Source of the DNA: Candidatus Heimdallarchaeum aukensis
GTDB taxonomy: Archaea; Asgardarchaeota; Heimdallarchaeia; Heimdallarchaeales; Heimdallarchaeaceae
Direction: 5' to 3'
Assembly (NCBI GenBank): GCA_021513695.1
Contig: CP084166.1
Span: forward strand, 384,001-448,000
DNA: 64,000 nucleotides
Below, one piece after another: positions 15,256-61,702 of the stretch (the first letter of the stretch is position 1; each line of letters begins with the position of its first letter). A program made the translations under genes and the position numbers. A model generated the notes under the pieces. That model saw only the letters and a list, made by a program, of their open reading frames with translations, made no database searches and was not told where the DNA came from.

Positions 15256-15288
15256 TAATAGAATCAAAAATAATTTGAATGAAAGAAG

Positions 15289-18699: not shown

Positions 18700-18775
18700 T
18701 TCTTTTTTCATTATCTTTATCTTTTTTGAGAATAATATTTATATCTAAAAATGGAAATGTTCTCTAGGGTTTGAA

Positions 18776-20146: not shown

Positions 20147-20311
20147 CAACATTATGTGATTTTGTGTTTTTGTGTAAAAATTCTCTATTTTTTTGTTAAA
20201 TTTATTACTATATAATAATGAATACAAAAAGAAATTAGGTTGAAATTATATCATTCATTGAATTTTTGAAAAAATTTTTGCCAAAAAAAATAAATATTTA
20301 GTTATATATAT

Positions 20312-20542
20312 GTGGTATGTATTAAAATGACTTCAGATTCATCTTGTTATTGTATTGTAAGAATAACTTGGCCTAAATGGATAGTTGCAACTGGACAGAT
20401 AGCTTTAGGTATTGGAATACTCTTATTGATCATTTTTTCGATCTTTTACACAAAGACAAGTTGGGAAAATTTTTCGCTATACGGAATCTACGTGGGAGCA
20501 GGTTTTTTGCTACTTGGGGCACTAATTAGCTATAGTTACTAA
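20312..20542 (+). CDS. small two-TM membrane protein, copy 1 with chimeric 3' end created by the duplication junction
   Basis: Identical to 25743-25979 up to ...LLGALI, then reads into the junction (SYSY*) instead of LSSNDW*. Confidence 0.4.
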   Translation: MVCIKMTSDSSCYCIVRITWPKWIVATGQIALGIGILLLIIFSIFYTKTSWENFSLYGIYVGAGFLLLGALISYSY

Positions 20543-20687
20543 CTCTTTACGCAATATTCCCATGCCTGTGAAGATACACAATGCACCAGTTTTAATTAAA
20601 GAAAATTTGTCTTTCTTTGAAAATCCTTATGATAGTTTGAAAATAAAAAAAGAAAAAAGGATATCTAAAGATATTCCTCTTCTTTAA
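20528..20687 (+). pseudogene. duplicated 3' fragment of herA (last ~53 codons)
   Basis: Exact copy of 15096-15255 (…TNSLRNIPMPVKIHNAPVLIKENLSFFENPYDSLKIKKEKRISKDIPLL*) with no 5' part. Confidence 0.6.
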
Positions 20688-20720
20688 TAATAGAATCAAA
20701 AATAATTTGAATGAAAGAAG

Positions 20721-22004
20721 GTGAAATTAGTGGTAAAAATAGCTCATATGTCTGATACTCATTTATCACATAGAAGAGTAAGAAATGTTAGAGATAGTTG
20801 GAAAGAAAGATATAGAGTAAGTTGGATAGAGAATGACTTTTCATTAGCTTTTCAAAGAGCTTTAGATGCAGCTATTGAAACTAAATGTGATTTTCTAGTT
20901 CATTCAGGAGATTTGTTTGATGTTCCTGTAAAAAGAAATACAACTTCACCTTCTGAATATGCAAGAGCTATTGCAATAAGTGAAATAAGAAGATTTTTGG
21001 AAGCTACACATTTTAAAGTACCTATAATTATAATTGATGGAAATCATGGAACTTATCTTTACAGGAATAATAGTACTATAGAATTCATAAAATCAGCTTT
21101 CCCTGAAAATGTGTTTATAGCCACAAATTATGACCTTAAACGAGCAATAGTAAAAAATGAACCTTTGAAAGTAGAGTTTGAAGAGATTAACTTTTATCTG
21201 TTTCCTTATTTAGAATTCAAATCTATGGCTAATTATGAAGAACTCTATGATGAATGGATAAGTAAATGCCAAGAGCCTGAAGACGGAAAAATTAATGTTG
21301 CAGTAGCTCACGGAATGTTTAGGAATTTGGATTTGCATGAAAAATTATTCTCTTTTCCTTATGATTATGTAGCTTTAGGACACGATCACCAACAAAGAAA
21401 ATATGCTCCAAACGCTTGGCAAGCAGGAAGTACAGAAAAATATACCTTTGCTGAAAGAGGACAAGAAAAAGGTATTTTAGAAGTTATTATTGAGAAAGGA
21501 AAAAATTTACACATTAATCCAATAAAGGTTGTTAGCCAAAGAGAAATGAAACAATTCGAAGTAGAATTAAGTTCAGACATGAGTGCATTAACTGTAGAAG
21601 AAAAAATAAGAGAACTTGTAGCAAGTTATAGAAAGAACTTTGATGGAAACACAGCTGCGAGAATAAAAGTTAAGTTACAAGGAAAAACTTCTCTCTCCTA
21701 CTGGTGGACAATAGAAGATCGTTTAGTAGAAATACAGAAAAATGTTCTAACTGAAGAATATAACATCCTAGAATTTAGATGGGATGAAGAAGAGTTAAAG
21801 AAATCTATACCTCAAAGCCTAGCCAAAACACCACAAATGGATCAATACCTAATTGAAGATCCAGTCAGGGATTTTGTAAATTATTTGAAAAACTTAGAAA
21901 TAGATGATGAAGTAAAATTTGAACAATATGCAAAACTAGGACCAGAAATAATTAAAGAGGTTTTTAGTGAAGGATTTATTTCTTCAAAGGAGGAGTTAGA
22001 ATGA
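20721..22004 (+). CDS. mre11: Mre11 nuclease (intact, 427 aa)
   Basis: Calcineurin-like phosphoesterase motifs I-V present (D-x-H, GDLFD, GNHG, VAVAHG and GHDHQ), followed by the Mre11 capping/C-terminal region. Confidence 0.85.
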   Translation: MKLVVKIAHMSDTHLSHRRVRNVRDSWKERYRVSWIENDFSLAFQRALDAAIETKCDFLVHSGDLFDVPVKRNTTSPSEYARAIAISEIRRFLEATHFKVPIIIIDGNHGTYLYRNNSTIEFIKSAFPENVFIATNYDLKRAIVKNEPLKVEFEEINFYLFPYLEFKSMANYEELYDEWISKCQEPEDGKINVAVAHGMFRNLDLHEKLFSFPYDYVALGHDHQQRKYAPNAWQAGSTEKYTFAERGQEKGILEVIIEKGKNLHINPIKVVSQREMKQFEVELSSDMSALTVEEKIRELVASYRKNFDGNTAARIKVKLQGKTSLSYWWTIEDRLVEIQKNVLTEEYNILEFRWDEEELKKSIPQSLAKTPQMDQYLIEDPVRDFVNYLKNLEIDDEVKFEQYAKLGPEIIKEVFSEGFISSKEELE

Positions 22005-24130
22005 AAATTCTTTGGATACACATGGAGAATTTTAAATGCTACCGCAATGAGAGGATTCCAGAAACAGGTATCCTTCCAAAAGGATTGATTTTTGTAGAGG
22101 GAGAGAATTCGGTAGGAAAAACTTCTTTGTTTGATGCAATATATTACGCTCTTTTTTACGAACCTACAAAGGACAAAGCCATTTTAGGTACAAAAGATAT
22201 GCTAGTAAAAAGAGGAGAAAAAGAGACTATCGTAGAAGTTGCTTTTGAAATAATGAATAAATACTTTGTAGTACAAAAGCAACATGGAATATCAACTCCT
22301 CTAAAAGTAGTTTTACTTCAAATTGATAGAGAGATGGCTGAAAAAGGAGAATTAAAAAATCCCATTAAAATAGCAGAAGGACTAGAGGATGTAAACAAGA
22401 AATTGTTTGAACTATTAAATATCACAAGCGAAAGCGTGTTGAGCACTCTAATAGTAAATCAAGGAGAAGTGCAAAAACTAGCAGAAGCTAAAGGAGCAGA
22501 ACTTAGAGATATAATTTACAAACTTTTTCATTTAGATATAAGAGAAAAGTTGAAACGTGTGATTAATAGAAAAATGGAGATTTTAGATGAAGAATGGGAA
22601 AAATACAAAATTGAGCGCACAACAGAGAATATTCTTGAAGAAATTAAAGAAATAGAGATAGAGAAAGAAACGAAAGAGAAAGAGTTAGTAAAAGCAAAAA
22701 ATGAACTGGAAAAAATAGAAGAGAAAATCTCTCAATATCCTAAACATGAAGATATTCAATCAATAAGCAATATTTTAACTCAAATACAGCAAACCAAAGA
22801 AACTATTTCTAAGCAAGAAAGAATAATTAAACAAAAATCTGAAACTTTAGAAATCAAGGAACTAACACAAGAAGAAATAAAGGATAAAATCTTAGAAATA
22901 GAGAAGATTATTCAGAAAACTAACAATAACATAGAAAATTTAAGAAACAAAAGAGATAAAGTCCAGAAAAAGTTGCATAGTCTCCAAAGAGATCTTGCTG
23001 AAATAAAAGAAAAAATCAAGAAACTAGAAAGTCATGAAGTAGGACATGAAGAAGATTTTACTTGCGAATTATGCGAACAAACGATGCCCTACTCGAAATT
23101 TAAGGAATTAGTAGAGAGTAAAAAACAATCAATTACAAATATTGAATTAGGGATTAAGAAAAGAACTGCAGAAAAAAGAGAAGTAGAGAAACAAATTGAA
23201 AAAGAAAGCAATTATATTAATAAGCTAAAAGAACAAATTTTTTCACTTAATAATGTCAAAGATAGGCTAGATAATCTAGAGAATAACAAGAAAGAATTGG
23301 ATAAAAAACAAAATAATTTAATAACACAACTTAAAAAATTCAAAGTCCAGACAGTTGATCAGCTTTCAAAGAAATATAATGTCGAAAACTTTGAGGAATT
23401 CTTTTCAATTATAAGTCAACTGAAATCTGATAAAGCTAGTCTAAATGCATCAATAAGTCATCTAAATAAAACTATTGAAAAACTAAAACAAAGGAAAAAT
23501 CAATTAGAAAAAGAAATAGACAAAAATAAGGAAAAGGAAGAGAAACAAGAGAGTATTCTTCAAGAACAAGCTGCACTAAAAGATGTAGAAGGTGTAGTTT
23601 CAAGTTTTATAGCTGAGGAGCTAATCTCCAATAGATTGCTTGCAGGAATACAGCAGACAACTAATCCTAATATAAACTTGTTTACGAGAGGAAAATACTC
23701 AGAGATATATCTAGAAGCAACTACAAAGAAAACTTTAAGGTTAAGCGTTTTAGACAAAGAAGAAGAATTCGTAAAAAATCAAGAGTTCCTTTCAGGAGGA
23801 GATAAAGCAGCTATAGGACTAGGATTGAGATTAGGTATAAGCGAATTACTAAAACAAATTAGACCATTCAAAGATTCTCCTCATAATCCTCCAAGGATGG
23901 ATATAATGATACTTGATGAGCCTTTGGGTTCACTTGATAGTGAAAGAAGGAAAAAAGTTCTAGAAGGATTGTTGATACAGAAGAAATTCAGTCAAATATT
24001 TCTGATTACACATACAAATGTTAGAGAAGAACTTCGAGCTCCTTCAATTCGAGTAAGTAGAACAGAAAAAGGTAGCTCTACAGCCTATTACCCTGCTCCA
24101 AGTAAAATAGAGTTAGAATCTGAAGAATGA
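22001..24130 (+). CDS. rad50: Rad50 ABC-type ATPase, copy 2
   Basis: Identical to copy 1 except for a one-Asp deletion (HLDIREK versus HLDDIREK). Confidence 0.8.
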   Translation: MKILWIHMENFKCYRNERIPETGILPKGLIFVEGENSVGKTSLFDAIYYALFYEPTKDKAILGTKDMLVKRGEKETIVEVAFEIMNKYFVVQKQHGISTPLKVVLLQIDREMAEKGELKNPIKIAEGLEDVNKKLFELLNITSESVLSTLIVNQGEVQKLAEAKGAELRDIIYKLFHLDIREKLKRVINRKMEILDEEWEKYKIERTTENILEEIKEIEIEKETKEKELVKAKNELEKIEEKISQYPKHEDIQSISNILTQIQQTKETISKQERIIKQKSETLEIKELTQEEIKDKILEIEKIIQKTNNNIENLRNKRDKVQKKLHSLQRDLAEIKEKIKKLESHEVGHEEDFTCELCEQTMPYSKFKELVESKKQSITNIELGIKKRTAEKREVEKQIEKESNYINKLKEQIFSLNNVKDRLDNLENNKKELDKKQNNLITQLKKFKVQTVDQLSKKYNVENFEEFFSIISQLKSDKASLNASISHLNKTIEKLKQRKNQLEKEIDKNKEKEEKQESILQEQAALKDVEGVVSSFIAEELISNRLLAGIQQTTNPNINLFTRGKYSEIYLEATTKKTLRLSVLDKEEEFVKNQEFLSGGDKAAIGLGLRLGISELLKQIRPFKDSPHNPPRMDIMILDEPLGSLDSERRKKVLEGLLIQKKFSQIFLITHTNVREELRAPSIRVSRTEKGSSTAYYPAPSKIELESEE

Positions 24131-24206
24131 TTCTTTTTTCATTATCTTTATCTTTTTTGAGAATAATATTTATATCTAAAAATGGAAATGTTCTCTAGGG
24201 TTTGAA

Positions 24207-25577
24207 ATGATACCTGGAACACTTAGACCTTTACCAAAAAGATTAGCTAAAGTAAAAACAGAAGCTGAAAGGCTTTTTAGAGCAGTGGACTATGATTACG
24301 AGACTATTAAAGAAATACTAAAATCTAGTAAAAATTTTGAATTTGAAGAAATAAGAAGACAATATATTAATTGTATAAATCATCACATAAGAATAGTTCC
24401 ACTCGTAAAAGAAGCAGATAAATTGTTAGTTAAATATTCAAGAGATCCACTTCTAAAAGAAATGGTTTTCAAACTATTTGATAAGTTGGAAAAATATGAA
24501 TACAGATTGAATGGTGATATTCAACGACTTGATACTATTTTAATGTCGAAAAGAAAAGAATACATCAATAAAACAATTCCACTAGTGAAATCAGAAATAA
24601 GAAGCAAGTTATCTTTCTTAAGAGACCTAGATTTTGAGCAATTACTCGCTGACAGTGAAAAATATTCTGCTATTATTTCAGGCATCGTAGATCGTGTAAA
24701 TATATTAAAAGACGAGTATCAAAAATTAATCGAAAATGCTCTTGAAAGCGCAGTAGAAGCTTATAAAGAGTTAAAAGAAAAACTAGACGAACTTGAAGAT
24801 GAACTAAAAGAGTATGTTCTTATTCTTGCTACTTGTAAGATGGAATTGCTAATTAACGATTCAAAAACTTTGCTTGAAGAAGGAGTTAAAATATTCGAAC
24901 GTTTTGAATTAGAACAAACAACTGAACTCATAGAAGAAGCACAAGAGTACCTAGAAAAAGCAAAACCAACTCTAAAAGAGATGAATGAATTAAAGGTAGA
25001 TATTCCTAAAAAAGCAATGAAAAAGAGCTTTGAAACAAAATTCCGAGAATTAAGAAATAAATTCGAAGAAAATAAATTTACTCTAGATGAATTGATAAAC
25101 AACATCGAAACTAGAAATAGGTTACTATCGACAAATATTGAAAGAATTGATGCATTAAAAGAGCTAGCAAAATCAATGTCGAGTGACATCAAAGAAACAG
25201 GAGAAATATTAAAAATAAAAAGAATGGGTACATTTAAACTATACTTGAAAGAAAATCTTATTCCACACATGGAGTTGCAAGAAAATGGTATAGTAAAAAT
25301 ACCAAAGGCAGAAGAACTCACGGCAACTTTTATAGATGAAATAATCTTGACTCTTGAAGATGTAGATAATAAAAATATAGTTAAGGACTGGTTCAATGCT
25401 TTTAGAGCAACAAAAGTAGGTAAGTGGATATATGAAACTTCAATCAAAATTAAAAATAAAATAGTAGACATAACAAAGAAGATTGTAAAAAAAACTAAAA
25501 AATGGATCCAAGAAATGAAAGAAAAAAGAGAACAGAAAAAATCGCAAGAAAATCAACAAAAAGAAGAGAAGAAATAG
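24207..25577 (+). CDS. coiled-coil protein of unknown function, copy 2
   Basis: Identical to 18776-20146. Confidence 0.55.
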   Translation: MIPGTLRPLPKRLAKVKTEAERLFRAVDYDYETIKEILKSSKNFEFEEIRRQYINCINHHIRIVPLVKEADKLLVKYSRDPLLKEMVFKLFDKLEKYEYRLNGDIQRLDTILMSKRKEYINKTIPLVKSEIRSKLSFLRDLDFEQLLADSEKYSAIISGIVDRVNILKDEYQKLIENALESAVEAYKELKEKLDELEDELKEYVLILATCKMELLINDSKTLLEEGVKIFERFELEQTTELIEEAQEYLEKAKPTLKEMNELKVDIPKKAMKKSFETKFRELRNKFEENKFTLDELINNIETRNRLLSTNIERIDALKELAKSMSSDIKETGEILKIKRMGTFKLYLKENLIPHMELQENGIVKIPKAEELTATFIDEIILTLEDVDNKNIVKDWFNAFRATKVGKWIYETSIKIKNKIVDITKKIVKKTKKWIQEMKEKREQKKSQENQQKEEKK

Positions 25578-25742
25578 CAACATTATGTGATTTTGTGTTT
25601 TTGTGTAAAAATTCTCTATTTTTTTGTTAAATTTATTACTATATAATAATGAATACAAAAAGAAATTAGGTTGAAATTATATCATTCATTGAATTTTTGA
25701 AAAAATTTTTGCCAAAAAAAATAAATATTTAGTTATATATAT

Positions 25743-25979
25743 GTGGTATGTATTAAAATGACTTCAGATTCATCTTGTTATTGTATTGTAAGAATAACTT
25801 GGCCTAAATGGATAGTTGCAACTGGACAGATAGCTTTAGGTATTGGAATACTCTTATTGATCATTTTTTCGATCTTTTACACAAAGACAAGTTGGGAAAA
25901 TTTTTCGCTATACGGAATCTACGTGGGAGCAGGTTTTTTGCTACTTGGGGCACTAATTCTATCAAGTAATGACTGGTAG
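25743..25979 (+). CDS. small two-TM membrane protein (native copy)
   Basis: 78 aa with two hydrophobic helices. Its 3' end lies beyond the duplication boundary. Confidence 0.45.
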   Translation: MVCIKMTSDSSCYCIVRITWPKWIVATGQIALGIGILLLIIFSIFYTKTSWENFSLYGIYVGAGFLLLGALILSSNDW

Positions 25980-31051: not shown

Positions 31052-31483
31052 TTGAGAAAAATGGCTACACTTGAAGCAATGAAAATAATTCCTGACAGAA
31101 CTGTTGAAGAGTTAGAAAAAATTGATGTTGAAATTGGTAAGATTTTAACTAAAATACTTAATGAAGATGGAAATAATTTAGATTTTATAGAAAAACAAAT
31201 TTATGCTATTCTTCTAATCTCAAAAGCTGGATTACCAATGTATTCAAACGTAAATGCTGATTTTAAAGTAAATGAACTTTTGCTGTCAGGATTGCTAGGG
31301 GCTTTACAAATAGTAGGAAATTCAATTTTCAGAGACGATACAGTTATATGTTCGATAAATTATAAAGGTTTCACGATTTTATTTGAAGAAATGTCGTTTG
31401 GAAGTTTGGTTTTAATTGTTTCAGAAAATAATCAATTAACAAGAAAAATAATTAAGATAATTAAAGAAACTTTAACTGAATAA
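31052..31483 (+). CDS. Roadblock/LC7 (MglB-like) domain protein (tentative)
   Basis: About 140 aa. The segment AILLISKAGLPMYSNV...LLGALQIVG...GSLVLIVSE matches the alpha-beta-beta-alpha-beta pattern of Roadblock/LC7 domains. Assignment is by pattern only. Confidence 0.35.
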   Translation: MRKMATLEAMKIIPDRTVEELEKIDVEIGKILTKILNEDGNNLDFIEKQIYAILLISKAGLPMYSNVNADFKVNELLLSGLLGALQIVGNSIFRDDTVICSINYKGFTILFEEMSFGSLVLIVSENNQLTRKIIKIIKETLTE

Positions 31484-31487
31484 TGTC

Positions 31488-31580
31488 TGCTTCGATAATT
31501 CAATTAATCTGATAACATTATTGGGGTTATTTCTTACAAGGATAACATCTGCACTTTCTATTGCAACATCAGTTCCTGCC
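31488..31580 (+). pseudogene. about 93-bp remnant of a copB-like P-type ATPase 3' region
   Basis: About 93% identical to 32492-32583 inside copB (first 31 bp identical). Lies opposite in strand to copB and directly after the stop of the 31052-31483 gene. Confidence 0.5.
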
Positions 31581-32250: not shown

Positions 32251-34464
32251 TTACGATTTATCTTTTTGTTCTTTCTTTGCAGATTTTTTATTGTTTTTTG
32301 GAGATATATCATATTTTCTTAAAGTTTGGGAATTGATAGCGACGATTACTGTACTCAAAGACATCAAAATTGCGCCTATAGCAGGGTTTATTATTACACC
32401 TACACTTGCTAGAACTCCTGCAGCTAAAGGAATAGCGATTATATTATATCCTGCTGCCCACCATAAATTTTGAATCATTTTCTTGTATGTTTGCTTCGAT
32501 AATTCAATTAATCTGATAACATCATTTGGGTTATTTCTTACAAGGATAATATCTGCGCTTTCTATTGCAACATCAGTTCCTGCCCCTACTGCAATTCCTA
32601 CATCAGCAGTAACTAATGCAGGAGCATCATTAATTCCGTCTCCGACCATAGCGACTTTGTATCCTTCCTCTTTTAATTTTGTAATTTTATCAGCTTTCTC
32701 ATGTGGAAGAACTTCTGCAAAATAGTCATCCATTTCTAATTCTTTTGCTACCCATTTTGCTACTTCTTCTGCATCGCCTGTAAGCATGTATGTTCTTATT
32801 CCTAAAGATTTTAACTTCTCAATAGCAATTCTTGAATCTTCTCTTATTTTATCTGCTAGAGCAAATGCGCCAGCAAGTTTGTCATCAATTATTGTAAAGA
32901 TTACAGTTTTTCCTTGTTGTTGCACTTGTTTTATCTTCTCATCTTCTATTTCTATTTTCAACTCGTCAAGTAAGTTTGGGCTACCAACATAGACTGTTTT
33001 TCCATTTATTTTACCTTTTACACCTTTACCTGGCATTACAGTAAAATCAATAGTTGAAGGGATCTTTATTTTCTTCTCTTTTGCATAATCTACTATAGCT
33101 TTTGCAATTATATGCTCAGAGTTAATCTCTAACGCTGCAGTTAACTCCAATAACTCTTCTTCAGGAATGTACGAGATAACATCAGTTACTCCAAAGTTTC
33201 CTTCAGTCAAAGTTCCTGTTTTATCAAAAACTATAGCATCTATGTTTCGAACGTTTTCAAATCCAGTTCTGTCTCTTATAAGTACTCCACTTTTAGCAGT
33301 AATAGAAGTAGATAAAGCAACAACTAGAGGAATAGCTAAACCTAACGCATGGGGGCAAGCAATAACTAATACTGTTACAGCTCTCTCTAAAGCGAAATCA
33401 GGAAAACCAAGAAGGAACCATGTAGTATAAGTTATGATTCCTGCGATAAGTGCTACATAAAATAATAATGCTGCTGCACGATTAGCTAAATCTTGTGTTC
33501 TTGATTTACTCATTTGTGCTTTTCTTACTAAGTCTATTACTTGAGCAAGATAATTTTCTTCACCAGTTTTAGTTATTTTTACATGTAAAATTCCTTCTGA
33601 ATTTATAGATCCACCAATAACCATGTCATCCACAGTTTTGGATACAGGCATTGATTCTCCAGTCAAAAAAGCTTCATTTACATATGAAGAACCGTCTATA
33701 ACTACACCATCTGAAGGAATTTTTTCTCCAGGTCTAACAAGTGTAACATCATTGATTTTAAGCTCGGAAACGGAGACATCAATGATTTCTCCATCCTTGA
33801 TTAAGTGAGCAGTAGTAGGCATAATCTTTACTAATTCCTCTAATGCTCTCGAAGCTCCCATAATACTTTTTGCTTCCACCCAGTGACCTAGTAGCATAAC
33901 ATCGATCAATGTAGCAAGCTCCCAAAAGAAATCTACTCCTTCAATGAAAAACACAGTAGCAGCCGAATAAAAGAAAGCTACAGATATTGCCATTGCAATA
34001 AGTGTCATCATACCAGGAAGTTTTTTCTTGATTTCGTTAAATAAGCCTTTTAGAAATGGCCAACCACCATAAAAATAGATAAGTGATGAGATTGCAAGAA
34101 CTAATTCTCTTTGAAAATTAAAGGTAATCTCAAAGTTTAACCATAGCTGAATTGTTTCAGATAGAAGTAAAACTGGAATGGTTAAAATTAAAGAGACAAA
34201 AAATCTTTTCTTGAAGTCAGAAATGTGAGCAGAATGGTCATGAGATTTGTGGTCCTGATGATCTCCATGTTTCATTTTAGTTCCTGTAGATCCATGATCT
34301 TTGTGTTCTTGATGATTTTGATGCGTAGTATGTGCTTCTGCAGAAACATGACTTTTATGATCCTTATGATCTTTATGTTTCATATGAGATTCTGAAGAAT
34401 CATGTTTTTTGTGATTTTGGTTATCATGATCTTGATTTTTATTTCCTTTGTTCATTTTTTTCAC
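32251..34464 (-). CDS. copB: copper-translocating P1B-type ATPase, His-rich N-terminus, CPH motif
   Basis: N-terminal His-rich metal-binding stretch (HKDHKDHKSH...), CPH in TM6 (ACPHALGLA), phosphorylation site DKTGTLT and hinge GDGINDAP. Confidence 0.9.
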   Translation of the reverse strand: MKKMNKGNKNQDHDNQNHKKHDSSESHMKHKDHKDHKSHVSAEAHTTHQNHQEHKDHGSTGTKMKHGDHQDHKSHDHSAHISDFKKRFFVSLILTIPVLLLSETIQLWLNFEITFNFQRELVLAISSLIYFYGGWPFLKGLFNEIKKKLPGMMTLIAMAISVAFFYSAATVFFIEGVDFFWELATLIDVMLLGHWVEAKSIMGASRALEELVKIMPTTAHLIKDGEIIDVSVSELKINDVTLVRPGEKIPSDGVVIDGSSYVNEAFLTGESMPVSKTVDDMVIGGSINSEGILHVKITKTGEENYLAQVIDLVRKAQMSKSRTQDLANRAAALLFYVALIAGIITYTTWFLLGFPDFALERAVTVLVIACPHALGLAIPLVVALSTSITAKSGVLIRDRTGFENVRNIDAIVFDKTGTLTEGNFGVTDVISYIPEEELLELTAALEINSEHIIAKAIVDYAKEKKIKIPSTIDFTVMPGKGVKGKINGKTVYVGSPNLLDELKIEIEDEKIKQVQQQGKTVIFTIIDDKLAGAFALADKIREDSRIAIEKLKSLGIRTYMLTGDAEEVAKWVAKELEMDDYFAEVLPHEKADKITKLKEEGYKVAMVGDGINDAPALVTADVGIAVGAGTDVAIESADIILVRNNPNDVIRLIELSKQTYKKMIQNLWWAAGYNIIAIPLAAGVLASVGVIINPAIGAILMSLSTVIVAINSQTLRKYDISPKNNKKSAKKEQKDKS

Positions 34465-47394: not shown

Positions 47395-49251
47395 TTAATA
47401 TTTCTTTCCACAGATATCAATTTCTTCAAAAGTTTCCTTAACTTTATTTTTCTTTTGTTTTGTTCTGAAGATAATTTCAAATAAAACAATTGAAAAAATG
47501 AAAATCATCCAAACTATACTTTTACTGATAATTTCTTTTCTTCTAGTAATACCTATGTTTGAATTAGGATCTAATGGGTCAAAATCATTCATTACTTCTT
47601 CATAATCAGTATATGAATCTCCATCTGTATCAGGATCGTTGGGATCAGTATTATAAAATTTTACTTCTTCAAAATCGTCCAATCCATCAAAGTCACTATC
47701 TATGCGTAAAGGATTAGTATGGTAAATAAATAATTCTTCATAATCATCTAGTAAGTCACCATCTGTATCACGATTTAGGGGACTAGTATTGTAATTATTT
47801 ACTTCTTCTCCGTCTTTTAATCCATCATTATCAGAATCACTATCATTGGGGTCAGTATCGTACATGTAAATTTCAAGATTATCAGACAAACCATCCAAAT
47901 CTGAATCTTTTAATGTAGGATTTGTTCCATAAACAAATACTTCTACTCCATCATCTATTCCATCATTATCTGAATCATCATTTGTAGGATCTGTTCCATA
48001 AGCGTATATTTCATCACCATCTAATAATCCATCAAAGTCAGTATCATTATTCCTTGGATCAGTATTGTTTTCAAATTCGTGAATATTATATAATTCATCA
48101 TTATCAAAGTCAACATAGGCATCAATTGGATTAGCAACATCTAAACCATAGTAATATTCCCAGTAATTTGTCATTCCATCGCTGTCTAAATCTCCATCAG
48201 CATCGCTTGGATCATCAGGATCTAATCCTACACTAACTTCCCAGTAATCAGGCATTTTATCGTTATCACTATCTCTTACTAGTTTTATGATAAAAGCATC
48301 AATATATCCTTCCAAAGTGGAATTTAAAGGGCTTTTTAAAAGAAGATCATTACTCTCTGTACTCCCTACTATGTAGATAGAACCATCACTATCCACTGCT
48401 ATATCTCTACCTACATCTTCTTCTCTTCCACCAAAATATGTGCTAAAAACTAAATTTGTTCCACTTCTGTTTAACATAGAAACAAAAATATCGGAATAAT
48501 AAGTAGGATTTCTTTCTTCAATTGCATTTTTAATCGGAAAATCATTGCTCCATGTTCCACCTGTTAAATAGACGTTTTGATCATTATCTACCGTTATTGA
48601 CAAACAAGTATCATTTGATGAACCACCTAAAAATGTACTATAGATTATATTATCAGCTGTTGAACTTATTTTTGTTAAAAATATGTTAGAATATCCATTT
48701 AGTGTGTCATCAAAGGCATTTTTTGTTGGAAAGTCAGTACTATTTGTAACACCAGTGATATATACATAACCTTCACTATCAATAGTTATTCCTCTGGCAT
48801 AATCATTATACTTTCCCCCTAAATAAGTGCTAAAGATTAACCCATTTCCTGTAGAGTTAATATAGGATAAATAAACATCAAAAAAGCTTCCACCACCATA
48901 AGTAGAATTAAAAGCATTTACAGTCGGAAAATCATCACTTCTTGTAGATCCAGTAATGAAAATAGAACCATTAGAGAAAACTTTACCTTTAGCAAAGTAT
49001 TCAGCATCACTTCCCCCTATTATTGTGGTGAAAATAGGTTCAAGAGTTTCTCCATCAAGTTTAGTAACAAAAGCATCATAATCATCATCTGAAATATTTC
49101 CAAAAGCAAAGTTGTTGAATAAAGAAGTGCTCATAGTATCTCCAAAAATGTATATATTTCCATCATTTCCTATTTCTATCTTGCGTCCATAATCAAAAAT
49201 ATCCCCGCTTAAATAAGAACTAAAATCTACTAAATAAGGATCAATAATCAA
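47395..49251 (-). CDS. SBBP beta-propeller-repeat / thrombospondin-type-3-like Ca-binding surface protein, C-terminal part (after an in-frame TAA)
   Basis: Repeated ...GG..D.A.GI..D..G..YITG.T.S.DFP... (SBBP) units, then more than ten DxDxDGxxDxxE repeats, then a C-terminal TM helix. The track start is TTG. Confidence 0.6.
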   Translation of the reverse strand: MIIDPYLVDFSSYLSGDIFDYGRKIEIGNDGNIYIFGDTMSTSLFNNFAFGNISDDDYDAFVTKLDGETLEPIFTTIIGGSDAEYFAKGKVFSNGSIFITGSTRSDDFPTVNAFNSTYGGGSFFDVYLSYINSTGNGLIFSTYLGGKYNDYARGITIDSEGYVYITGVTNSTDFPTKNAFDDTLNGYSNIFLTKISSTADNIIYSTFLGGSSNDTCLSITVDNDQNVYLTGGTWSNDFPIKNAIEERNPTYYSDIFVSMLNRSGTNLVFSTYFGGREEDVGRDIAVDSDGSIYIVGSTESNDLLLKSPLNSTLEGYIDAFIIKLVRDSDNDKMPDYWEVSVGLDPDDPSDADGDLDSDGMTNYWEYYYGLDVANPIDAYVDFDNDELYNIHEFENNTDPRNNDTDFDGLLDGDEIYAYGTDPTNDDSDNDGIDDGVEVFVYGTNPTLKDSDLDGLSDNLEIYMYDTDPNDSDSDNDGLKDGEEVNNYNTSPLNRDTDGDLLDDYEELFIYHTNPLRIDSDFDGLDDFEEVKFYNTDPNDPDTDGDSYTDYEEVMNDFDPLDPNSNIGITRRKEIISKSIVWMIFIFSIVLFEIIFRTKQKKNKVKETFEEIDICGKKY

Positions 49252-49335
49252 TTTTTTAGCTGTATCATATTGTTCAATATTAAAAATATAACAGTTGTCA
49301 TCAAGAGTAAAATAAGCGGGGATAATTTTTCCTTC

Positions 49336-50067
49336 TTAAAAAACTTTTAAGTTTCTATCATTAAAAATTCTATATTCTGTATTTCCGATTCTTGAGATTC
49401 CAACTATATTAGTTTCATCTTCTTGTTTTAAGTAAAACTTTGAATCTGATGATAGTTGAACCTTAATAACTGAAGGATCAGCGTTTGGTTCAACAATAAA
49501 TTCGTATTTCAGAAATGAACCTGTAAAATAGTATCTTAAAGATATTCCGGGGTATATATCTTCATATATTATTTCTTGATAACAGCTTATTTGAGTAATT
49601 GCTTTATCTTTGTAAAAAAAGTTAGAATAGTAATTTGCTAATGCTTTTGCCTGTGGTACAACGATATTTGAATCAGGAAAAGAGACATTAATTAAGAAAA
49701 ATTTAGTATTTTCTTCTTTATTCGGTTTAAGATTCTGAATAAAGTAGACCTTAGATTCTCCAAAGTAAACATTTGTTAAAGGAGATTGAGCATAATAAAA
49801 AACTGTCTTGTCAAATATATGCCCTTTATTTTTCATAAAAAAGTATTTAGAATTGTAATCACTGACATAGTTCTCTTCAATTTCGCCGGAAACACTGTAA
49901 AAATTAATTTTTGCTTTATTTTGCTGTTGTGAATATTTTATGCTGTAAGAGCCAACTAAAGTGTTATTTTTGACATAAAATCCAGATAAACTGCTCACAC
50001 TTACAAGAAAGATTAAAAACAAACAAACAATAAATGAAACATTTCCTTTGCTTTGATTTTCATTCAT
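49336..50067 (-). CDS. N-terminal part of the same surface protein (signal peptide plus N-domain)
   Basis: Signal peptide MNENQSKGNVSFIVCLFLIFLVSVSS. Same reading frame as 47395-49251, separated only by TAA (49336-49338) and 28 sense codons that already show SBBP-like sequence (YFTLDDNCYIFNIEQYDTAKK). Confidence 0.55.
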   Translation of the reverse strand: MNENQSKGNVSFIVCLFLIFLVSVSSLSGFYVKNNTLVGSYSIKYSQQQNKAKINFYSVSGEIEENYVSDYNSKYFFMKNKGHIFDKTVFYYAQSPLTNVYFGESKVYFIQNLKPNKEENTKFFLINVSFPDSNIVVPQAKALANYYSNFFYKDKAITQISCYQEIIYEDIYPGISLRYYFTGSFLKYEFIVEPNADPSVIKVQLSSDSKFYLKQEDETNIVGISRIGNTEYRIFNDRNLKVF

Positions 50068-50350
50068 TTTTCTAAATATTTTAGGTTGAAAAATATTATA
50101 TAAATATTATCAAATGATTTTTGGATAGTTTTTTATTTAAAGTTTAAAATAAAGCTTGAATAGATTTTAGAATAAAAAGAAAAATTTTGCCAATTATATC
50201 TTTTTTGTAAGATTTAATCTAAAAAAGATAAATTCAAATTATAAGAAATAAGACAGATAATATTAGGCTAATTATCAGTTTTTCTATTAAATTCAAAATA
50301 GTGTTCTAGAAATCTAAAAAAATAGAATGAGGAAAACAGTAAAAAGCTAT

Positions 50351-50458
50351 AGTACTTCCGCAATAAGTTGACTGATTTCTATAGGTTAAAATTATAGGAG
50401 TTCATACTATCATTGGTGTGTTCTCAATTCATACTTTTTGAGATAATTCGGAAGTACT
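50351..50458 (+). mobile_element. MITE-like 108-bp element with 10-11-bp terminal inverted repeats, copy A
   Basis: agtacttccg......cggaagtact. 106/108 identical to the reverse complement of 60436-60543. Lies 47 bp upstream of the 50505 start codon. Flanks aaagcta / aagcta form a possible short target-site duplication. Confidence 0.6.
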
Positions 50459-50504
50459 AAAGCTAATAACAATTTTTTTAAGTATAATTATTAAATAAAA
50501 CACA

Positions 50505-55063: not shown

Positions 55064-57118
55064 TTGAACAGAGCAAAAAAAATAGTACCTTTAGCTATAA
55101 TATTTGTTCAAATAATTCTTTTTACTAGCTTACAGTATAGTTCCGTCAATGCAGATGAGATTCAGTATAACGTAATTGGAATAAACATCAATTCCGATAG
55201 TGATTTTATTGATTTTGCAAGGACAGGAGCAGGAACTAAAGAAGATCCCTACATAATTTCAGGGTATCACTTTGAGTACTATGAAATTGGGATATTTATT
55301 TCACAAACAAGTAAATATGTCATAATAACTAACTGTTCTTTTTCTAACATCAAATATGAAGCAATAAGATTGTGGTCTGTCAAATCTGGAACAGTAAGAA
55401 TAGAAAACAATACGATTGTTAATGCAAAAGTGGGAATATTCCTATATGAAGCTCCAGATTGTACAATAATAAGTAATAAAATAATGAACTGTTCTGCTTT
55501 TGCAATTAAAGATGATTTTTCTAGAATAGGATCAAAAATTATGAACAATACACTTTATAACAACGAAGAAGGAATAACCATAAGTGAAACTAATTACACT
55601 CAAATACTGAATAATTACATAATTTACAGTAGAAATGTTGGCATTTATTTAATGGATACCACAAATGGAACAGAAATACATCATAACTTCTTCTTAAATG
55701 CTAACAAACCTGCTTTTACAACAGCTTGTAGTTATGGATATTATAATAATTGGACATCAAATTATTGGAGTGATTGGGATGGTTCAAGTCCATATAAAAT
55801 AGAGAGTAAATATGAACAAACTTTTGACACAAATCCTTTAAGTTTCGATGACTCTGATGGAGACAAAATAATCGATATTTTAGAACTTGTTATGGATATG
55901 AATCCAGAATCAACCGACAACGACTCTGATGAAATTTCAGATTATGATGAATTACTTATTTATGCAACAAACCCTAATACAATAGATACAGATGAAGATG
56001 GAATAACAGATTATGATGAAATATTTGTATATTTAACAAATCCGAATACACAAGATACAGATAAAGATGGAATAACAGATTATGATGAAGTATTTGTATA
56101 TCATACAGATCCGAATAAAAAAGACTCAGATGGTGATACCTTTTCAGATTATGAAGAAATATTACAGAAAACCAATCCTAGGAAAAGTTATAGTAATCCA
56201 ATTACAAAAAAATATTTGACAATCTTTCTTCCAATTTTTTCAGGTTTATTTGGTGTTGCATTTCTTTCAACTAGATATTACTCTAACTCAAAGAAAAACA
56301 AAATTAAGGTAATCTTTGACACATGGAATGAATTTTTCAATGAATGGGAAAAAATAATTGAACAGATAAATAAATCAGGAAATTCAGAAATAGAAGAAAT
56401 AATCTTTGAGGTAAATCAGTTAAAAGAAAAAAAAGTAGATGAGCTTGAATTTGTCAAAAAAATAGTAGCTCAATCAAAGAAACTACTTATAGAACATATG
56501 AAATTCAACGTTGAATTAAGTTTACAAAAATACAAAAAGCAAATAGAAATTTTTGTTAACCTACAGAGTAATTTGATTGATAAAGCTTTAATTACCCTTA
56601 ATCAAATAACAGAAAATACAATTCTTAATGCTGTAAAAGATTATTTGTGGATGAGATTCGTTTATTTGTATAGTACTACTAGCAAATCAGAAGCAATTAC
56701 CACTATTGAAGATGTGAGTGGAGATGCACTTTTTAACAAGTTCATTAAATTTTATAGATCTTTAGATTATGAGGAAAGACTGAAAAAAGAAATATCCAAC
56801 TTAGCAGAAGAAGTAAAATTTCAGATAAATCAAGCAAAAAAATATGAAATTGAGCTTATAGAAAGTTCAATAAACTCTATTATTGATTCTCTATTTGATA
56901 AATTTAATAAACTTGAGATCGATATAAATATTCTTCAAGAAAAAATCAAGGATATAAACATCGCTCAGATTAAACTAGATAATCCTTCCGAAACTTTTGT
57001 TAGAATCGAAAATATAGTAAAAGAAGAAGTGAACATACAAATGAAAGATAAAGAAGAGTCTATTCAGTCTAATCTTTTCTCTAATCAAGAAAAAGGGTTA
57101 AAGAATCCGCGTGAATAG
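55064..57118 (+). CDS. receptor-like type-I membrane protein: beta-helix plus TSP3-like Ca-binding repeats, TM, cytoplasmic coiled-coil domain
   Basis: Signal peptide. Parallel beta-helix-like repeats (NNTIVNAKVGIFLYEAPDCTIISNKIMNC...). Three or four D-x-D-x-DGxxDYDE repeats. TM helix YLTIFLPIFSGLFGVAFLS. About 290-aa cytoplasmic domain conserved with the next gene. TTG start with GGGG SD. Confidence 0.6.
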   Translation: MNRAKKIVPLAIIFVQIILFTSLQYSSVNADEIQYNVIGININSDSDFIDFARTGAGTKEDPYIISGYHFEYYEIGIFISQTSKYVIITNCSFSNIKYEAIRLWSVKSGTVRIENNTIVNAKVGIFLYEAPDCTIISNKIMNCSAFAIKDDFSRIGSKIMNNTLYNNEEGITISETNYTQILNNYIIYSRNVGIYLMDTTNGTEIHHNFFLNANKPAFTTACSYGYYNNWTSNYWSDWDGSSPYKIESKYEQTFDTNPLSFDDSDGDKIIDILELVMDMNPESTDNDSDEISDYDELLIYATNPNTIDTDEDGITDYDEIFVYLTNPNTQDTDKDGITDYDEVFVYHTDPNKKDSDGDTFSDYEEILQKTNPRKSYSNPITKKYLTIFLPIFSGLFGVAFLSTRYYSNSKKNKIKVIFDTWNEFFNEWEKIIEQINKSGNSEIEEIIFEVNQLKEKKVDELEFVKKIVAQSKKLLIEHMKFNVELSLQKYKKQIEIFVNLQSNLIDKALITLNQITENTILNAVKDYLWMRFVYLYSTTSKSEAITTIEDVSGDALFNKFIKFYRSLDYEERLKKEISNLAEEVKFQINQAKKYEIELIESSINSIIDSLFDKFNKLEIDINILQEKIKDINIAQIKLDNPSETFVRIENIVKEEVNIQMKDKEESIQSNLFSNQEKGLKNPRE

Positions 57119-57302: not shown

Positions 57303-59288
57303 TTGAAAATAAAAAAGTCAAAATCTAATCTGTTAGTTTTGTTTTTAATATTGTTCTTTACTAGTTCTACCTATTTTCATATAAAAGCAGATGATAATAC
57401 AAAATCAGGTTTTGCAATTCAAATCTCTTCTAACGATGAATTTTCTTTATTTTCAAAAGCAGGTAACGGAACTAAAGAAAATCCCTATGTTATCTCAGGA
57501 TATATCATTGAACACTTCGAAGCAGGTATTTTTATATCTCAAACAACCAAATTTTTCGTTATTACTAATTGTACTTTTCTTAATCTAAAATATGAAGCCA
57601 TACGAATAATGACAGTAGATGTTGGTAATGTTAGAATAGAAAATAATACGATTATTAATACAAAGTTTGGAATTTATATATATCAAGCTCCAAAAAGTAT
57701 TATTGTAAATAACAAAATCGTTAATTGCACTGTATCAGGAATAAGAGACGAATTTTCAGGAATAGGTTCTAAAATTGAAAACAACACTCTTTACAACAAT
57801 GAAGAAGCTATTACAATTTATTCAACAAATTATACTCAAATATTAAATAATTATATAATCAAAAGTCGGAAAGCTGGCATATTTCTATTGTGGAAACCAA
57901 ATGGAACAGAAATACATTATAACTTTATTCTAAACTCAGTAAAACCTTATATTGCAACTGCTCACAACGAAGGATTCAATAATAATTGGACATCAAATTA
58001 TTGGAATGACTGGAATGGAACAGGAGATTATCAAATAAGTAGCATTTATGAAACAACATTTGATAAAAATCCTTTGAGTTTTAATGACACTGATGGAGAT
58101 AAAATAATTGATATTTTGGAACTTGTAATGAATACAGATCCTTATGTGGTAGATAGCGACAATGACGGAATTGATGACTATAATGAATTGCTTAATTATG
58201 CAACAAACCCTAATGCCCAAGACAGTGATGGAGATGGAATATCTGATTATGACGAAATAATTGTATATACAACAAATCCCAATGCACAAGACACTGATGG
58301 AGATGGAATAACAGATTATGATGAAGTATTTGTTTATGGAACTGATGCAAAGAAACGAGATACTGATGGCGATACTTTTTCTGATTATGAAGAAATATTA
58401 ATGAAAACTAACCCTAAAAAAAGTTACAGTAATCCTATTATTAGAAGATATCTAACCATCTTAATTCCTACTTTTTCAGGAGTACTTGTTATTGCAGCTT
58501 TTTCAACTAGATACTATACCAACTCAAGGAGAAACAAAATTAAGGTGATTTTTGAAACATGGAATGAATTTTTCACTGAGTGGGAGAAAATAATTGAGCA
58601 GATAAACAATACAAAAAATTCAGAAGTTGAAGAAATAATATTTGAGGTAAAGGAACTTAAAAATAAGAAAATTGACGAACTTGAGCTTGTAAAGAAAATA
58701 ATCAGTCAAGCTAAAAAATTACTTATCAATCATATGAAGTTCAATGTTGAATTAAGCTTACAAAGATATAAAAAGCAAGCTGAAATTGTAATTAATCTAC
58801 AGAATAACTTAATTAGCCAAGCATTAACTGCTCTTAATCAAATAACAAAGAATACAATACTAAACGCTGTAAAAGATTACTTGTGGATGAGATTTGTTTA
58901 TCTATATAGCACAACAGAAAAATCTGAAGCCATAACTACTATTGAAGATATAAGTGGAGACACTCTTTTTAACAAGTTTGTCAAATTTTACAAATCATTA
59001 GATTATGAAGAGAGATTGAAAGAAGAAGTTGCTCATTTGGCAGAAGAAATCAAATATCAAATAAGAAAAGCCAAAGATTATGAAATTGATCTTTTAGAGA
59101 GTTCAATAAATTCAATTATAGACTCTTTACTTGATAAGTTTAACAAGCTTGAAGTTGATATTAATTTTCTTGAAGAAAAAATAAAAGACATTAGTGTTGA
59201 ACAGTCCAAGATCGATAATCCAAAAGATGCCTTCTTAAAAATAGAAAAAATAGTTAAAGAAGAAGTGAAAGAACAAAAAAGCAATTAA
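57303..59288 (+). CDS. receptor-like type-I membrane protein, tandem paralog of the previous gene
   Basis: Same architecture. The cytoplasmic domain is about 75% identical and the 5' UTR / start region is also conserved (aattgaaggggtttgaa). Confidence 0.6.
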   Translation: MKIKKSKSNLLVLFLILFFTSSTYFHIKADDNTKSGFAIQISSNDEFSLFSKAGNGTKENPYVISGYIIEHFEAGIFISQTTKFFVITNCTFLNLKYEAIRIMTVDVGNVRIENNTIINTKFGIYIYQAPKSIIVNNKIVNCTVSGIRDEFSGIGSKIENNTLYNNEEAITIYSTNYTQILNNYIIKSRKAGIFLLWKPNGTEIHYNFILNSVKPYIATAHNEGFNNNWTSNYWNDWNGTGDYQISSIYETTFDKNPLSFNDTDGDKIIDILELVMNTDPYVVDSDNDGIDDYNELLNYATNPNAQDSDGDGISDYDEIIVYTTNPNAQDTDGDGITDYDEVFVYGTDAKKRDTDGDTFSDYEEILMKTNPKKSYSNPIIRRYLTILIPTFSGVLVIAAFSTRYYTNSRRNKIKVIFETWNEFFTEWEKIIEQINNTKNSEVEEIIFEVKELKNKKIDELELVKKIISQAKKLLINHMKFNVELSLQRYKKQAEIVINLQNNLISQALTALNQITKNTILNAVKDYLWMRFVYLYSTTEKSEAITTIEDISGDTLFNKFVKFYKSLDYEERLKEEVAHLAEEIKYQIRKAKDYEIDLLESSINSIIDSLLDKFNKLEVDINFLEEKIKDISVEQSKIDNPKDAFLKIEKIVKEEVKEQKSN

Positions 59289-59295
59289 AAAGTTT

Positions 59296-60411
59296 CTAAT
59301 GTATCCTTAGATTAGGTGGAATAAGGTTTAGAACTCCACAGGCTGGACATTCTATTACTCCATTTTCGTTCATGTCTTTTAGATCTAAGAGTTCTCCACA
59401 ATTCCCTGCACAATACATGGGAATTAATTCTGGTCCTTCCTTTACTCCTTCAATTGCACTATTAATCTTTGGAATAACTTCTTTGTAGAGCCTTTCGTGT
59501 ATTTGATCCACTTCATAACCGTAGACCCATATAGCTATATTTCCACTTTTTTCTTTTCCTGTGATTATAAGTTCAACTATAGAAATATCTTTTTTTCCGA
59601 TTTGGGAGACAAACATCAGGTTTCCAATGAAATTTTCACTTGTATCCATTACTATCTGTTCGTTCACTGTTTTATAAGAATCAAATAAGGTTTTTAAAAC
59701 TTTAAAAGCGACTTTTGGCTTTGCATGGAATTCTATTGATCTTCCTAATGAATCGAGCTTGTTGTTCTTTAATTCCATTAAAGCTTCATAATAACCATTT
59801 TCTATTCTTTCTTTAAGTATTAAAGCTCGTTCCTCTCTTTTTTTGTAAGCTTCATAGATTAGTTCTGTAAATTCAGCTTGTTTTTTCTTAACTATTGTAA
59901 ATTTCGTTCCTTCATGTATCTTTACAGGGGGAAAAGGCAAGCTACCTATTATTTGAGACTGAACAATATATGGTTCTCTTAAAGTTGAAGGAACAATAAA
60001 GCTTAACGAAGTACCGTAATCGATTATTTTTCCAATGTTTCCCTCTCTTACTATTGAACTCCAATCTCCTCCAGGAATTGTAACTGTATCTGGAACAGCC
60101 AAAAACACAACATCTGCTCTCGGGGGAGCAGAAGATATTAAAGCTGTTACTTCTTCTCCATCACCTATTTCTCCTGCAATTCTTTTGTCCAAGTATATTA
60201 AAGGATTTTTTCCTTTTTTTACTATCTCATTGATTTCAGCAAAAACTGAACTAGTCCTTCCAATTGTAGAAGAAAAGAGAAGAGCATATTTTTCATCATC
60301 TGCAAGTTCTAATTCAGTATCTTCTGGTAAAACTATACCTATACCGTTTCTAAAAACTAGTTTAACTTTACATGTAACCGTTTTCACATTCCTCTCTAAG
60401 AAAATCCTCAC
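59296..60411 (-). CDS. hypothetical protein with C-terminal zinc ribbon
   Basis: C-terminal CAGNCGELLD...CPACG four-Cys ribbon. No other motif recognised. Confidence 0.45.
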   Translation of the reverse strand: MRIFLERNVKTVTCKVKLVFRNGIGIVLPEDTELELADDEKYALLFSSTIGRTSSVFAEINEIVKKGKNPLIYLDKRIAGEIGDGEEVTALISSAPPRADVVFLAVPDTVTIPGGDWSSIVREGNIGKIIDYGTSLSFIVPSTLREPYIVQSQIIGSLPFPPVKIHEGTKFTIVKKKQAEFTELIYEAYKKREERALILKERIENGYYEALMELKNNKLDSLGRSIEFHAKPKVAFKVLKTLFDSYKTVNEQIVMDTSENFIGNLMFVSQIGKKDISIVELIITGKEKSGNIAIWVYGYEVDQIHERLYKEVIPKINSAIEGVKEGPELIPMYCAGNCGELLDLKDMNENGVIECPACGVLNLIPPNLRIH

Positions 60412-60435
60412 ATTTATATTTTCCTATAAGAAAAT

Positions 60436-60543
60436 AGTACTTCCGAATTATCTCAAAAAGTATGAATTGAGAACACGCCAATGATAGTATGAACTCCTAT
60501 AATTTTAACCTATAGAAATCGGTCAACTTATTGCGGAAGTACT
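60436..60543 (-). mobile_element. MITE-like 108-bp element, copy B (inverted relative to copy A)
   Basis: Its reverse complement matches 50351-50458 with 2 mismatches. Lies 24 bp upstream of the start codon of the 59296-60411 gene. Confidence 0.6.
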
Positions 60544-60752
60544 AAAGAAAAAGAAAAAATAAAATTCTAAAAAGGTAGTTGGGGAAGAAATTCCAGAAAA
60601 TTAGCTAAAGTCCCATATAAGCCAAATAAAGAACCTAGAATTGAATAAACAAGTAAAGCATATTTTTGAAACCCAGAAATATTTATGCCTAACAAGGCTT
60701 CAAATTGTTTTTTATAGAATTTAACAGGAATATTAACAACAAAAAGTTGTTT

Positions 60753-61529: not shown

Positions 61530-61702
61530 TTATATGAGGATATATATTATGTTTGATGAAAATATATTCCTAATAACAAAAATAATTGAAATATCAACTT
61601 TAAAGTTATACAGAAGACAAAAAAAAGTTTTTTTGATAATTATGTAGTACCCATTAATTTTAAAAATAAATAAATAGATTTGTTTTTTGAGCAAATGGGA
61701 TA

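Follow-up and report, generated by a model that had tools for sequence, protein, structure and literature searches.

A stretch of 64,000 nucleotides from Candidatus Heimdallarchaeum aukensis (contig CP084166.1, positions 384,001 to 448,000; hereafter the window) carries two short, nearly identical repeats in inverted orientation, each of them close upstream of a gene start, and the locus raises the question of what these repeats are, how they arose and why both adjoin genes. A first-pass annotation, made from the sequence alone, had placed them at 50351-50458 and 60436-60543 and had described a small non-autonomous transposable element of 108 bp with terminal inverted repeats (TIRs). At a probability of roughly 0.93, the repeats are taken here to be copies of a 110-bp miniature inverted-repeat transposable element (MITE) that arose by internal deletion from a 1.2-kb, ISH3-like insertion sequence (IS) of Heimdallarchaeum.

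The repeat search of the 64-kb window returned inverted arms at 50347-50459 and 60435-60544 (113 nt, 97% complementary). The two repeats, designated copies A and B, were identical at 106/108 positions within the boundaries of the first-pass annotation, and their termini, agtacttccg...cggaagtact, were exactly as it had given them. The boundaries themselves required correction. In 20/20 copies from H. aukensis and the sister genome Ca. H. endolithica PR6 (CP084167.1), an invariant T precedes and an invariant A follows the 108 bp, and the element is therefore 110 bp long; over this full length copies A and B share 108/110 positions. The TIR is a perfect 11 bp, TAGTACTTCCG / CGGAAGTACTA, in all 20 copies and extends to approximately 17 bp with one bulged base. 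The decamer AGTACTTCCG has exactly four occurrences in the window, all of them at the termini of copies A and B. The coding remnant of the MITE consists of a transposase ATG and about eight in-frame codons, followed by a stop. A tblastn search found no transposase in the 64-kb window, as the annotation had stated, and no degenerate or partial MITE copies beyond those with perfect TIRs were found by blastn in the window and all archaeal loci.

Further copies were sought in one genome per prokaryotic species using the pattern AGTACTTCCG-N80-108-CGGAAGTACT. This paired-TIR scan returned 46 loci, comprising 18 from PR6, 12 from the metagenome-assembled genome (MAG) CAZHRF01 of an uncultured archaeon, and 16 others. 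PR6 thus holds at least 18 copies, each 108 nt by the original boundaries, with 94-100% mutual identity. The 12 elements of CAZHRF01 (106-108 nt between the original boundaries) form a sister family in which conservation is confined to about 17 bp at each end (TAGTACTTCCGAAATAG... / ...TTAATTCGGAAGTACTA), while the interiors, nearly constant in length, comprise several mutually unrelated sequence types; such a pattern would be expected if only the transposase-binding ends were under selection. These elements are located on L001, L003, L008-L010, L016, L021, L026, L030, L031, L043 and L044, and an extra copy of the family, at about L010:1611-1717, has a degenerate TIR. The loci retrieved contained no parent IS for this family. 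One candidate, L044:3878-5024, was rejected on the grounds that it had no transposase similarity and that its supposed right end was mismatched.

The 16 non-archaeal loci were discarded as GC-rich chance matches or unrelated bacterial repeats. A 114-nt repeat in the Bacillota MAG OH_PFB_52 (L007, L012, L015, L041) shares the terminal 12-mers AGTACTTCCGAA / TTCGGAAGTACT, but around it a longer inverted repeat is conserved (ccattgc...gta / tac...gcagctcgga). The two elements are probably unrelated, and their shared terminus coincidental. When metagenome and viral collections were searched with the 14-base pattern TAGTACTTCCGNAAT, no second end was present within 3 kb among the approximately 240 matches listed, which are attributed to chance. 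The paired-TIR scan of viral contigs gave five unrelated GC-rich matches and no sign of carriage on a known virus.

Direct repeats at the insertion sites were then read from the 110-bp boundaries. The first-pass annotation had pointed to aagcta at copy A and aagaaaa at copy B as possible target-site duplications (TSDs) and had called them ambiguous. Among the 20 copies from H. aukensis and PR6, the TSD is 6 bp in 17 (copy A, with AAGCTA, and 16 PR6 copies), 7 bp in two (copy B, with TTTTCTT on the element strand, and L025) and imperfect in one (L036, which is without a perfect TSD and matches at 5/6 positions). In the CAZHRF01 family the TSD is 5 bp in nine of the 12 elements and 6 bp in two, the last having no perfect repeat. 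As a control, flanks were paired across different copies; a direct repeat of at least 5 bp occurred in 2.0% of these mismatched pairs versus 30/32 real copies, and aagcta and aagaaaa are therefore genuine TSDs. They are set off from the 108-bp boundaries by the T and the A that belong to the element. A duplication model of the form W-element-W built on the 108-bp boundaries was rejected, as it fails in nearly all copies and the T and A must be placed inside the element.

Insertion sequences with matching ends are present in PR6. Three of them are intact (L049:2447-3663, L050:2447-3664 and L051:2447-3664; 1217-1218 bp), are bounded by the same 11-bp TIR as the MITE, and have TSDs of 6, 6 and 7 bp (TTCTAT, TAATAT and AATTTTA, respectively). 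A fourth copy, at L045:4231-5460, is decayed: it is 1230 bp long and frameshifted but retains perfect TIRs and a 6-bp TSD, GAAAAT, and a MITE copy of the same family (L045:2151-2260) is found about 2 kb away. The broken open reading frame (ORF) of the decayed IS is DDE-like (YADRGFY..., HRWSIETSYRLLK), and the protein pieced together from it matched Pfam DDE_Tnp_1, with the NCBIfam 'ISH3 family transposase' as its best match. The intact PR6 transposases are proteins of 355 aa (P0001, UJG42406.1) and 381 aa, the latter present twice (P0006; UJG43520.1, UJG43563.1). H. aukensis likewise has an annotated ISH3-like transposase, outside the window, of 342 aa (P0007, UJG40423.1), which belongs to the same 90%-identity cluster as P0001 and is 98% identical to P0006; an exact-sequence look-up of P0007 for its locus gave no record. 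Against NF033541, the NCBIfam ISH3 model, the intact transposases scored 134 bits, with an E-value of 5e-39 and a match over model positions 2-298 of 298; IS4 was the next-best family at 38 bits. Residues D128, D204 and E300 do not vary among five homologues; the proteins show an IETSYRLLK motif and are encoded by a single ORF of 355-381 aa.

Read in the transposase sense, nt 1-92 of the MITE are 74-77% identical to the left end of the IS and span the left TIR, the 5' leader, and the transposase ATG with about 12 codons. The last 18 nt of the MITE (CTTATTGCGGAAGTACTA) equal the right end of the IS, including its right TIR. The MITE thus consists of the first 92 bp of the IS fused to its last 18 bp. 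The deletion junction, ...AAATCGGTCAA/CTTATTGCGG..., is common to 20/20 copies, and therefore a single deletion event was followed by multiplication of the 110-bp form.

The proteins encoded in the window match those of H. aukensis exactly (UJG41189.1, UJG41192.1). Both sites in the window have empty counterparts in relatives. A 12-kb Joint Genome Institute (JGI) metagenome contig, L047, which is 98.8-99.65% identical to the window over about 3.3 kb flanking site A, lacks exactly 116 bp at this site, that is, the 110-bp element and one AAGCTA. Site A is empty also in L297, the syntenic region of PR6, and in L298, a Logan contig, and site B is empty in these same two. The blastn breakpoints between PR6 and the window fell at 50349/50459 and 60436/60544. 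Another Logan contig, L048, which carries the copy-B gene, terminates inside copy B. Both window insertions are young: the sister species lacks the two of them, and a 99% identical strain lacks one. The MITEs themselves are 97.5% identical between the two species and 98.0% identical within PR6, versus 83% identity of the syntenic DNA between the species, which points to recent spread; the family has probably spread, or been exchanged, long after the species diverged.

The first-pass description as a small non-autonomous transposable element is thus borne out by the TSDs, the PR6 copies, the parent IS and the empty sites. That annotation had held that a regulatory palindrome would be favoured by only two copies genome-wide and no IS with the same TIR; the analysis showed instead 18 copies in PR6, 12 members of a sister family in another archaeon, and three intact and one decayed IS with the same ends.

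The placement of the copies near genes, which the first-pass annotation had recorded for the two in the window, extends to the family. All flank positions were counted outward from the ends of the 110-bp element, TSD included. All 20 copies from H. aukensis and PR6 lie between genes, the most that any of them touches being the end of a mechanically called ORF. On the side of the CAAT end there is a T-tract (T at -13 in 18/20 and at -12 in 18/20), and on the side of the AATTCGG end an A-tract (A at +12 in 19/20 and at +13 in 20/20). The unoccupied site is roughly TT-N5-[6 bp]-N5-AA, a palindrome of the kind expected for a dimeric transpososome. A TATA-like hexamer was defined by a hand-made regular expression as TTTAWA, TTTTAA or TTAWAA. 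In 11/20 copies such a hexamer begins at +16 to +18 from the AATTCGG end, versus an intergenic background of 3.5% (binomial p ~1e-11). On the CAAT side such a hexamer lies within +13 to +24 in 2/20 (Fisher p 0.006 for the difference between sides). The start codon of an ORF of at least 90 aa is found 23-56 nt from the AATTCGG end in 9/20 copies and from the CAAT end in 1/20; the intergenic background for a 23-57-nt window is 6.8% (p ~3e-6).

In the usual geometry the TATA-like box is about 17 nt and the ATG 43-47 nt from the element end, which places the box 28-30 nt before the start. Across the genome, TATA-like hexamers are weakly enriched at -38 to -25 from starts, with which this spacing agrees; in view of general archaeal promoter geometry, it would also agree with leaderless or short-leader transcripts. 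Both copies in the window conform to this arrangement. The hexamer next to copy A, TTTTAA, begins at +17, and the distance from the element to the ATG at 50505 is 45 nt; at copy B, AAAATATAAA covers +13 to +22 and the GTG at 60411 is 23 nt away. The distances of 47 and 24 bp in the first-pass annotation were therefore about right. For the gene at 59296-60411 (unannotated, 371 aa as called), an in-frame GTG at 60387, 47 nt from the element, is probably the true start, because the PR6 ortholog has 363 aa and is 8 codons shorter. The copy-A box is unchanged in the empty site of L047 and conserved in PR6; at the copy-B box, the sequence AGGAAAATATAAATGTGA is conserved in PR6. The TATA-like boxes belong to the host flank and not to the element, since the empty alleles have them too. 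Of the four IS copies, those on L045 and L050 are oriented as in the MITE pattern, with a start codon 45-46 nt away, and L049 has a TATA-like box on the opposite side.

Under the proposed explanation, full-length IS copies would supply the DDE transposase that moves the MITE in trans and that presumably binds the ends of about 17 bp. Insertion through a 6-bp, sometimes 7-bp, staggered cut would give rise to the TSD. Target choice may be steered by the palindrome of T-tract and A-tract, the A-rich half of which would often coincide with the B recognition element (BRE) and TATA region of a promoter; about half of the copies would in this way land immediately upstream of core promoters with the transposase-5' end toward the gene. 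The two ends of the MITE diverge from position 12 on (CAATAAG vs AATTATC), and for this reason an asymmetric contact between transpososome and target is a plausible source of the orientation bias. Alternatively, the bias may stem from counter-selection of insertions in which the retained transposase leader would read out into the gene. A further step, that the transposase senses the archaeal promoter (the BRE/TATA sequence, its bend, or bound TATA-binding protein (TBP) and transcription factor B (TFB)) and integrates 16-18 bp upstream of TATA in a fixed orientation, is offered tentatively and is considered unlikely.

The same placement could in principle reflect selection rather than target choice. 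The element would then be a domesticated regulatory module, enriched upstream of promoters in one orientation by what it supplies: an activating or insulating sequence, a terminator of read-through, or a divergent promoter from the transposase leader. The strong enrichment of both gene starts and TATA-like boxes, confined to the AATTCGG side, the retention of the transposase leader and ATG in the element, and a T5 run (CATACTTTTTGAG) on the strand reading toward the gene are all in keeping with such a function. However, the fixed 16-18-bp spacing to TATA and the palindromic T- and A-tracts are signatures of target selection by a transposase, and the insertions are very young and polymorphic (site A being empty in the 99% identical strain), which leaves little time for selection. 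The full-length ISs on L045 and L050, moreover, are placed likewise. Domestication is accordingly regarded as quite improbable.

A structured small RNA gene, or a cis-regulatory palindrome (operator) shared by the two flanking genes, is a far more remote prospect. Both copies adjoin gene starts, and the 130-nt region around copy A folds into a closing stem and three hairpins with z = -5.85 on the plus strand and -4.48 on the minus strand. This signal, however, is that of the TIR stem: the 76-nt interior of copy A gave z = -1.89 and +0.64, and the interior of the commonest family sequence gave -0.11 and +1.25, no better than shuffles. The majority bases at positions 50 and 68 disrupt two of the three hairpins, the sister family in CAZHRF01 conserves the ends only, with unrelated interiors, and TSDs, empty sites and a parent IS are unexpected for an RNA gene or an operator. 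No match to Rfam (gathering threshold) or by ARAGORN was obtained in the whole window. Finally, the idea that full-length ISs suffered independent internal deletions in place and that the 110-bp form never transposed accords with the clear derivation of the element from an IS by deletion, but is rejected as next to impossible, because independent deletions would yield differing junctions and sequence like that of the IS, whereas 20/20 copies have one junction, and because the copies are 94-100% identical to one another and only 74-77% to the IS left end.

Several observations weigh against the MITE interpretation or against parts of it. Mobilization by this particular transposase is proposed from shared ends and co-occurrence. 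The subterminal sequence of the MITE is only about 75% identical to the ISs found, and it must therefore descend directly from another, or an older, variant of the IS. At 134 bits, the ISH3 match does not reach the curated threshold of 225. The TSD usually quoted for ISH3 elements is 4-5 bp (ISfinder), whereas the Heimdallarchaeum IS and MITE have 6-7 bp, and the CAZHRF01 family 5 bp. For ISHsal1 a TSD of 5 bp has been given (PMC7002104). Since the score is below the cut-off and the TSD is 6-7 bp and not 5, the parent IS would best be placed as a divergent lineage closest to the ISH3 family. The statistics for TATA-like boxes and start codons are post hoc, and rest on 20 copies and a hand-made TATA expression; 5/11 of the TATA-like sites have no ORF of at least 90 aa nearby, and some of these sites may be matches to the target sequence rather than promoters. 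The TATA-like asymmetry is absent from the CAZHRF01 family (4 vs 4 of 11). The copy count for H. aukensis (n=2) is that of the 64-kb window only.

Table 1. Coordinates of the MITE copies, their duplicated target sites and the adjoining putative promoter elements in the window.
Feature	Position	Strand	Remarks
MITE copy A	50350..50459	+	110 bp; 94.5-98.2% identical to 18 PR6 copies
Copy A orientation			CAAT-end to AATTCGG-end; transposase 5'-end remnant reads on minus strand
Copy A left TIR	50350..50360	+	TAGTACTTCCG; equals right end of parent IS
Copy A right TIR	50449..50459	-	CGGAAGTACTA on plus strand; equals left, transposase-proximal end of parent IS
Copy A TSD, left	50344..50349	.	AAGCTA; single copy in empty sites
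Copy A TSD, right	50460..50465	.	AAGCTA
Putative TATA-like box, copy A	50473..50489	+	TTTTTTTAAGTATAATT, A/T-rich; helix-turn-helix (HTH)/DUF7347 membrane-protein gene, ATG at 50505
MITE copy B	60435..60544	-	110 bp, inverted relative to copy A
Copy B TSD, gene-proximal	60428..60434	.	AAGAAAA on plus strand; TTTTCTT on element strand
Copy B TSD, distal	60545..60551	.	AAGAAAA on plus strand
Putative TATA-like box, copy B	60413..60422	-	AAAATATAAA, +13 to +22 from AATTCGG end; gene 59296-60411

The element is a classical MITE in every testable respect. Among archaea, MITEs derived from insertion sequences of the ISH and ISC groups are its closest counterparts; of these, the SM1-SM4 elements of Sulfolobus solfataricus were reportedly treated by Redder et al. 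in 2001. The MITEHsal elements of Halobacterium salinarum include optional MITEHsal2 copies with duplications (PMC7002104). Like these, the Heimdallarchaeum MITE is short and non-coding, has the TIRs of a resident IS and is flanked by TSDs, and it is present in several copies that are optional between close strains, a pattern taken to reflect recent transposition. It differs in being much shorter (110 bp, versus about 405-413 bp for MITEHsal2), in its Asgard host, and in its oriented, fixed-distance link to TATA-like boxes. The parent resembles the ISH3 family (ISHsal1 and ISH3B/C/D of Halobacterium) in its single-ORF DDE transposase, short TIRs and short TSD. Members of that family measure about 1.2-1.5 kb (ISfinder), a range into which 1217-1218 bp falls.

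The Correia elements (Correia repeat enclosed elements, CREE) of Neisseria and similar bacterial MITEs found beside promoters are likewise TIR-bounded repeats of about 100-150 bp that are mostly intergenic, often directly upstream of genes, and form long hairpins in the transcript. The Correia elements duplicate TA and carry functional promoters and sites for IHF and RNase III. The TATA-like box at the Heimdallarchaeum MITE, in contrast, is in the pre-existing flank and not in the element. Among eukaryotic transposons, targeting of promoters or of the pre-initiation complex (PIC) is known from Ty3, which inserts at TFIIIB-bound Pol III starts, from Tf1 at Pol II promoters, and from mPing, which inserts upstream of genes. 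By analogy only, the likeness lies in integration at a fixed short distance upstream of transcription starts that spares coding sequence. The enzymes are unrelated (retroviral-type integrases and the PIF/Harbinger transposase), and for them tethering to transcription factors has been demonstrated, whereas in Heimdallarchaeum there is only a correlation at the sequence level.

In the Heimdallarchaeum genome paper, non-tandem repeats account for 3% of the genome and 11 transposase/integrase families are reported (PMC8813620); MITEs, insertion sequences and inverted repeats are not mentioned there. A 2026 survey of archaeal ISs deals with MITEs only in passing (PMC13343696), and a full-text literature search combining Asgard with 'miniature inverted' gave nothing relevant on an Asgard MITE.

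Other features of the window and of its PR6 counterpart were recorded. A DUF7948/SBBP/TSP3-repeat gene (47395-50067, minus strand) diverges from the intergenic region of copy A. It is a single 1018-aa ORF in L047 and PR6 and is split into 243 + 618 aa in the window at about 49338. The point of the split shows a G-to-A difference on the plus strand, by which CAA becomes TAA in the coding sense; the gene is either a pseudogene here or affected by an error in sequencing. Tandem paralogous NosD/beta-helix/TSP3 surface-protein genes at 55064-57118 and 57303-59288 share 68-80% nucleotide identity at a spacing of 2236 nt, and at this locus PR6 has a single gene (L297:11877-13865). The same PR6 region has two inverted genes of 232 aa, L297:1258-1956 (minus strand) and L297:16176-16874 (plus strand), with a faint match to the rve_3 integrase core, which bracket about 14 kb; the second of them is absent from the orthologous position of the window (about 61535-61645), which points to a further IS family in which the two species differ.

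Farther from the MITEs, a tandem duplication of 5.43 kb occupies 15096-20527 and 20528-25958; its two copies are 99.9% identical over 5434 aligned nt, with no mismatches and two indels. The duplication could be very recent or could be an assembly artefact. Its cargo is a calcineurin-like phosphoesterase (Pfam Metallophos), an AAA_23/SMC_N ATPase and a 456-aa ORF; from their pairing, the first two are presumably Mre11-like and Rad50-like. The phosphoesterase gene is split (256 + 199 aa) in the first copy of the duplication and intact (427 aa) in the second. A 98-nt direct repeat (repeat family D12) is found at 31483-31580 and 32487-32584, 95% identical and 1004 nt apart.

This is a first characterization of an autonomous ISH3-like IS and its MITE as an active pair in Heimdallarchaeum, a genus that ranks among the archaea most closely related to eukaryotes so far known. 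Strains in metagenomes from Pescadero and Guaymas can be tracked by the filled and empty alleles, and the element can end contigs in short-read assemblies, as with the Logan contig that breaks inside copy B. The identity of 97.5% between elements versus 83% between genomes is evidence for recent element flow between two Asgard species. If the oriented placement at a fixed distance holds genome-wide, it would represent a rare case of promoter-directed target choice in archaea and a natural source of regulatory variation. Should the transposase indeed sense promoters, it would be a prokaryotic counterpart, from the Asgard lineage, of the promoter- or PIC-tethered integration of Ty3 and Tf1, and the MITE, at every transposition, would rewire a gene's upstream regulatory region while leaving the core promoter intact.

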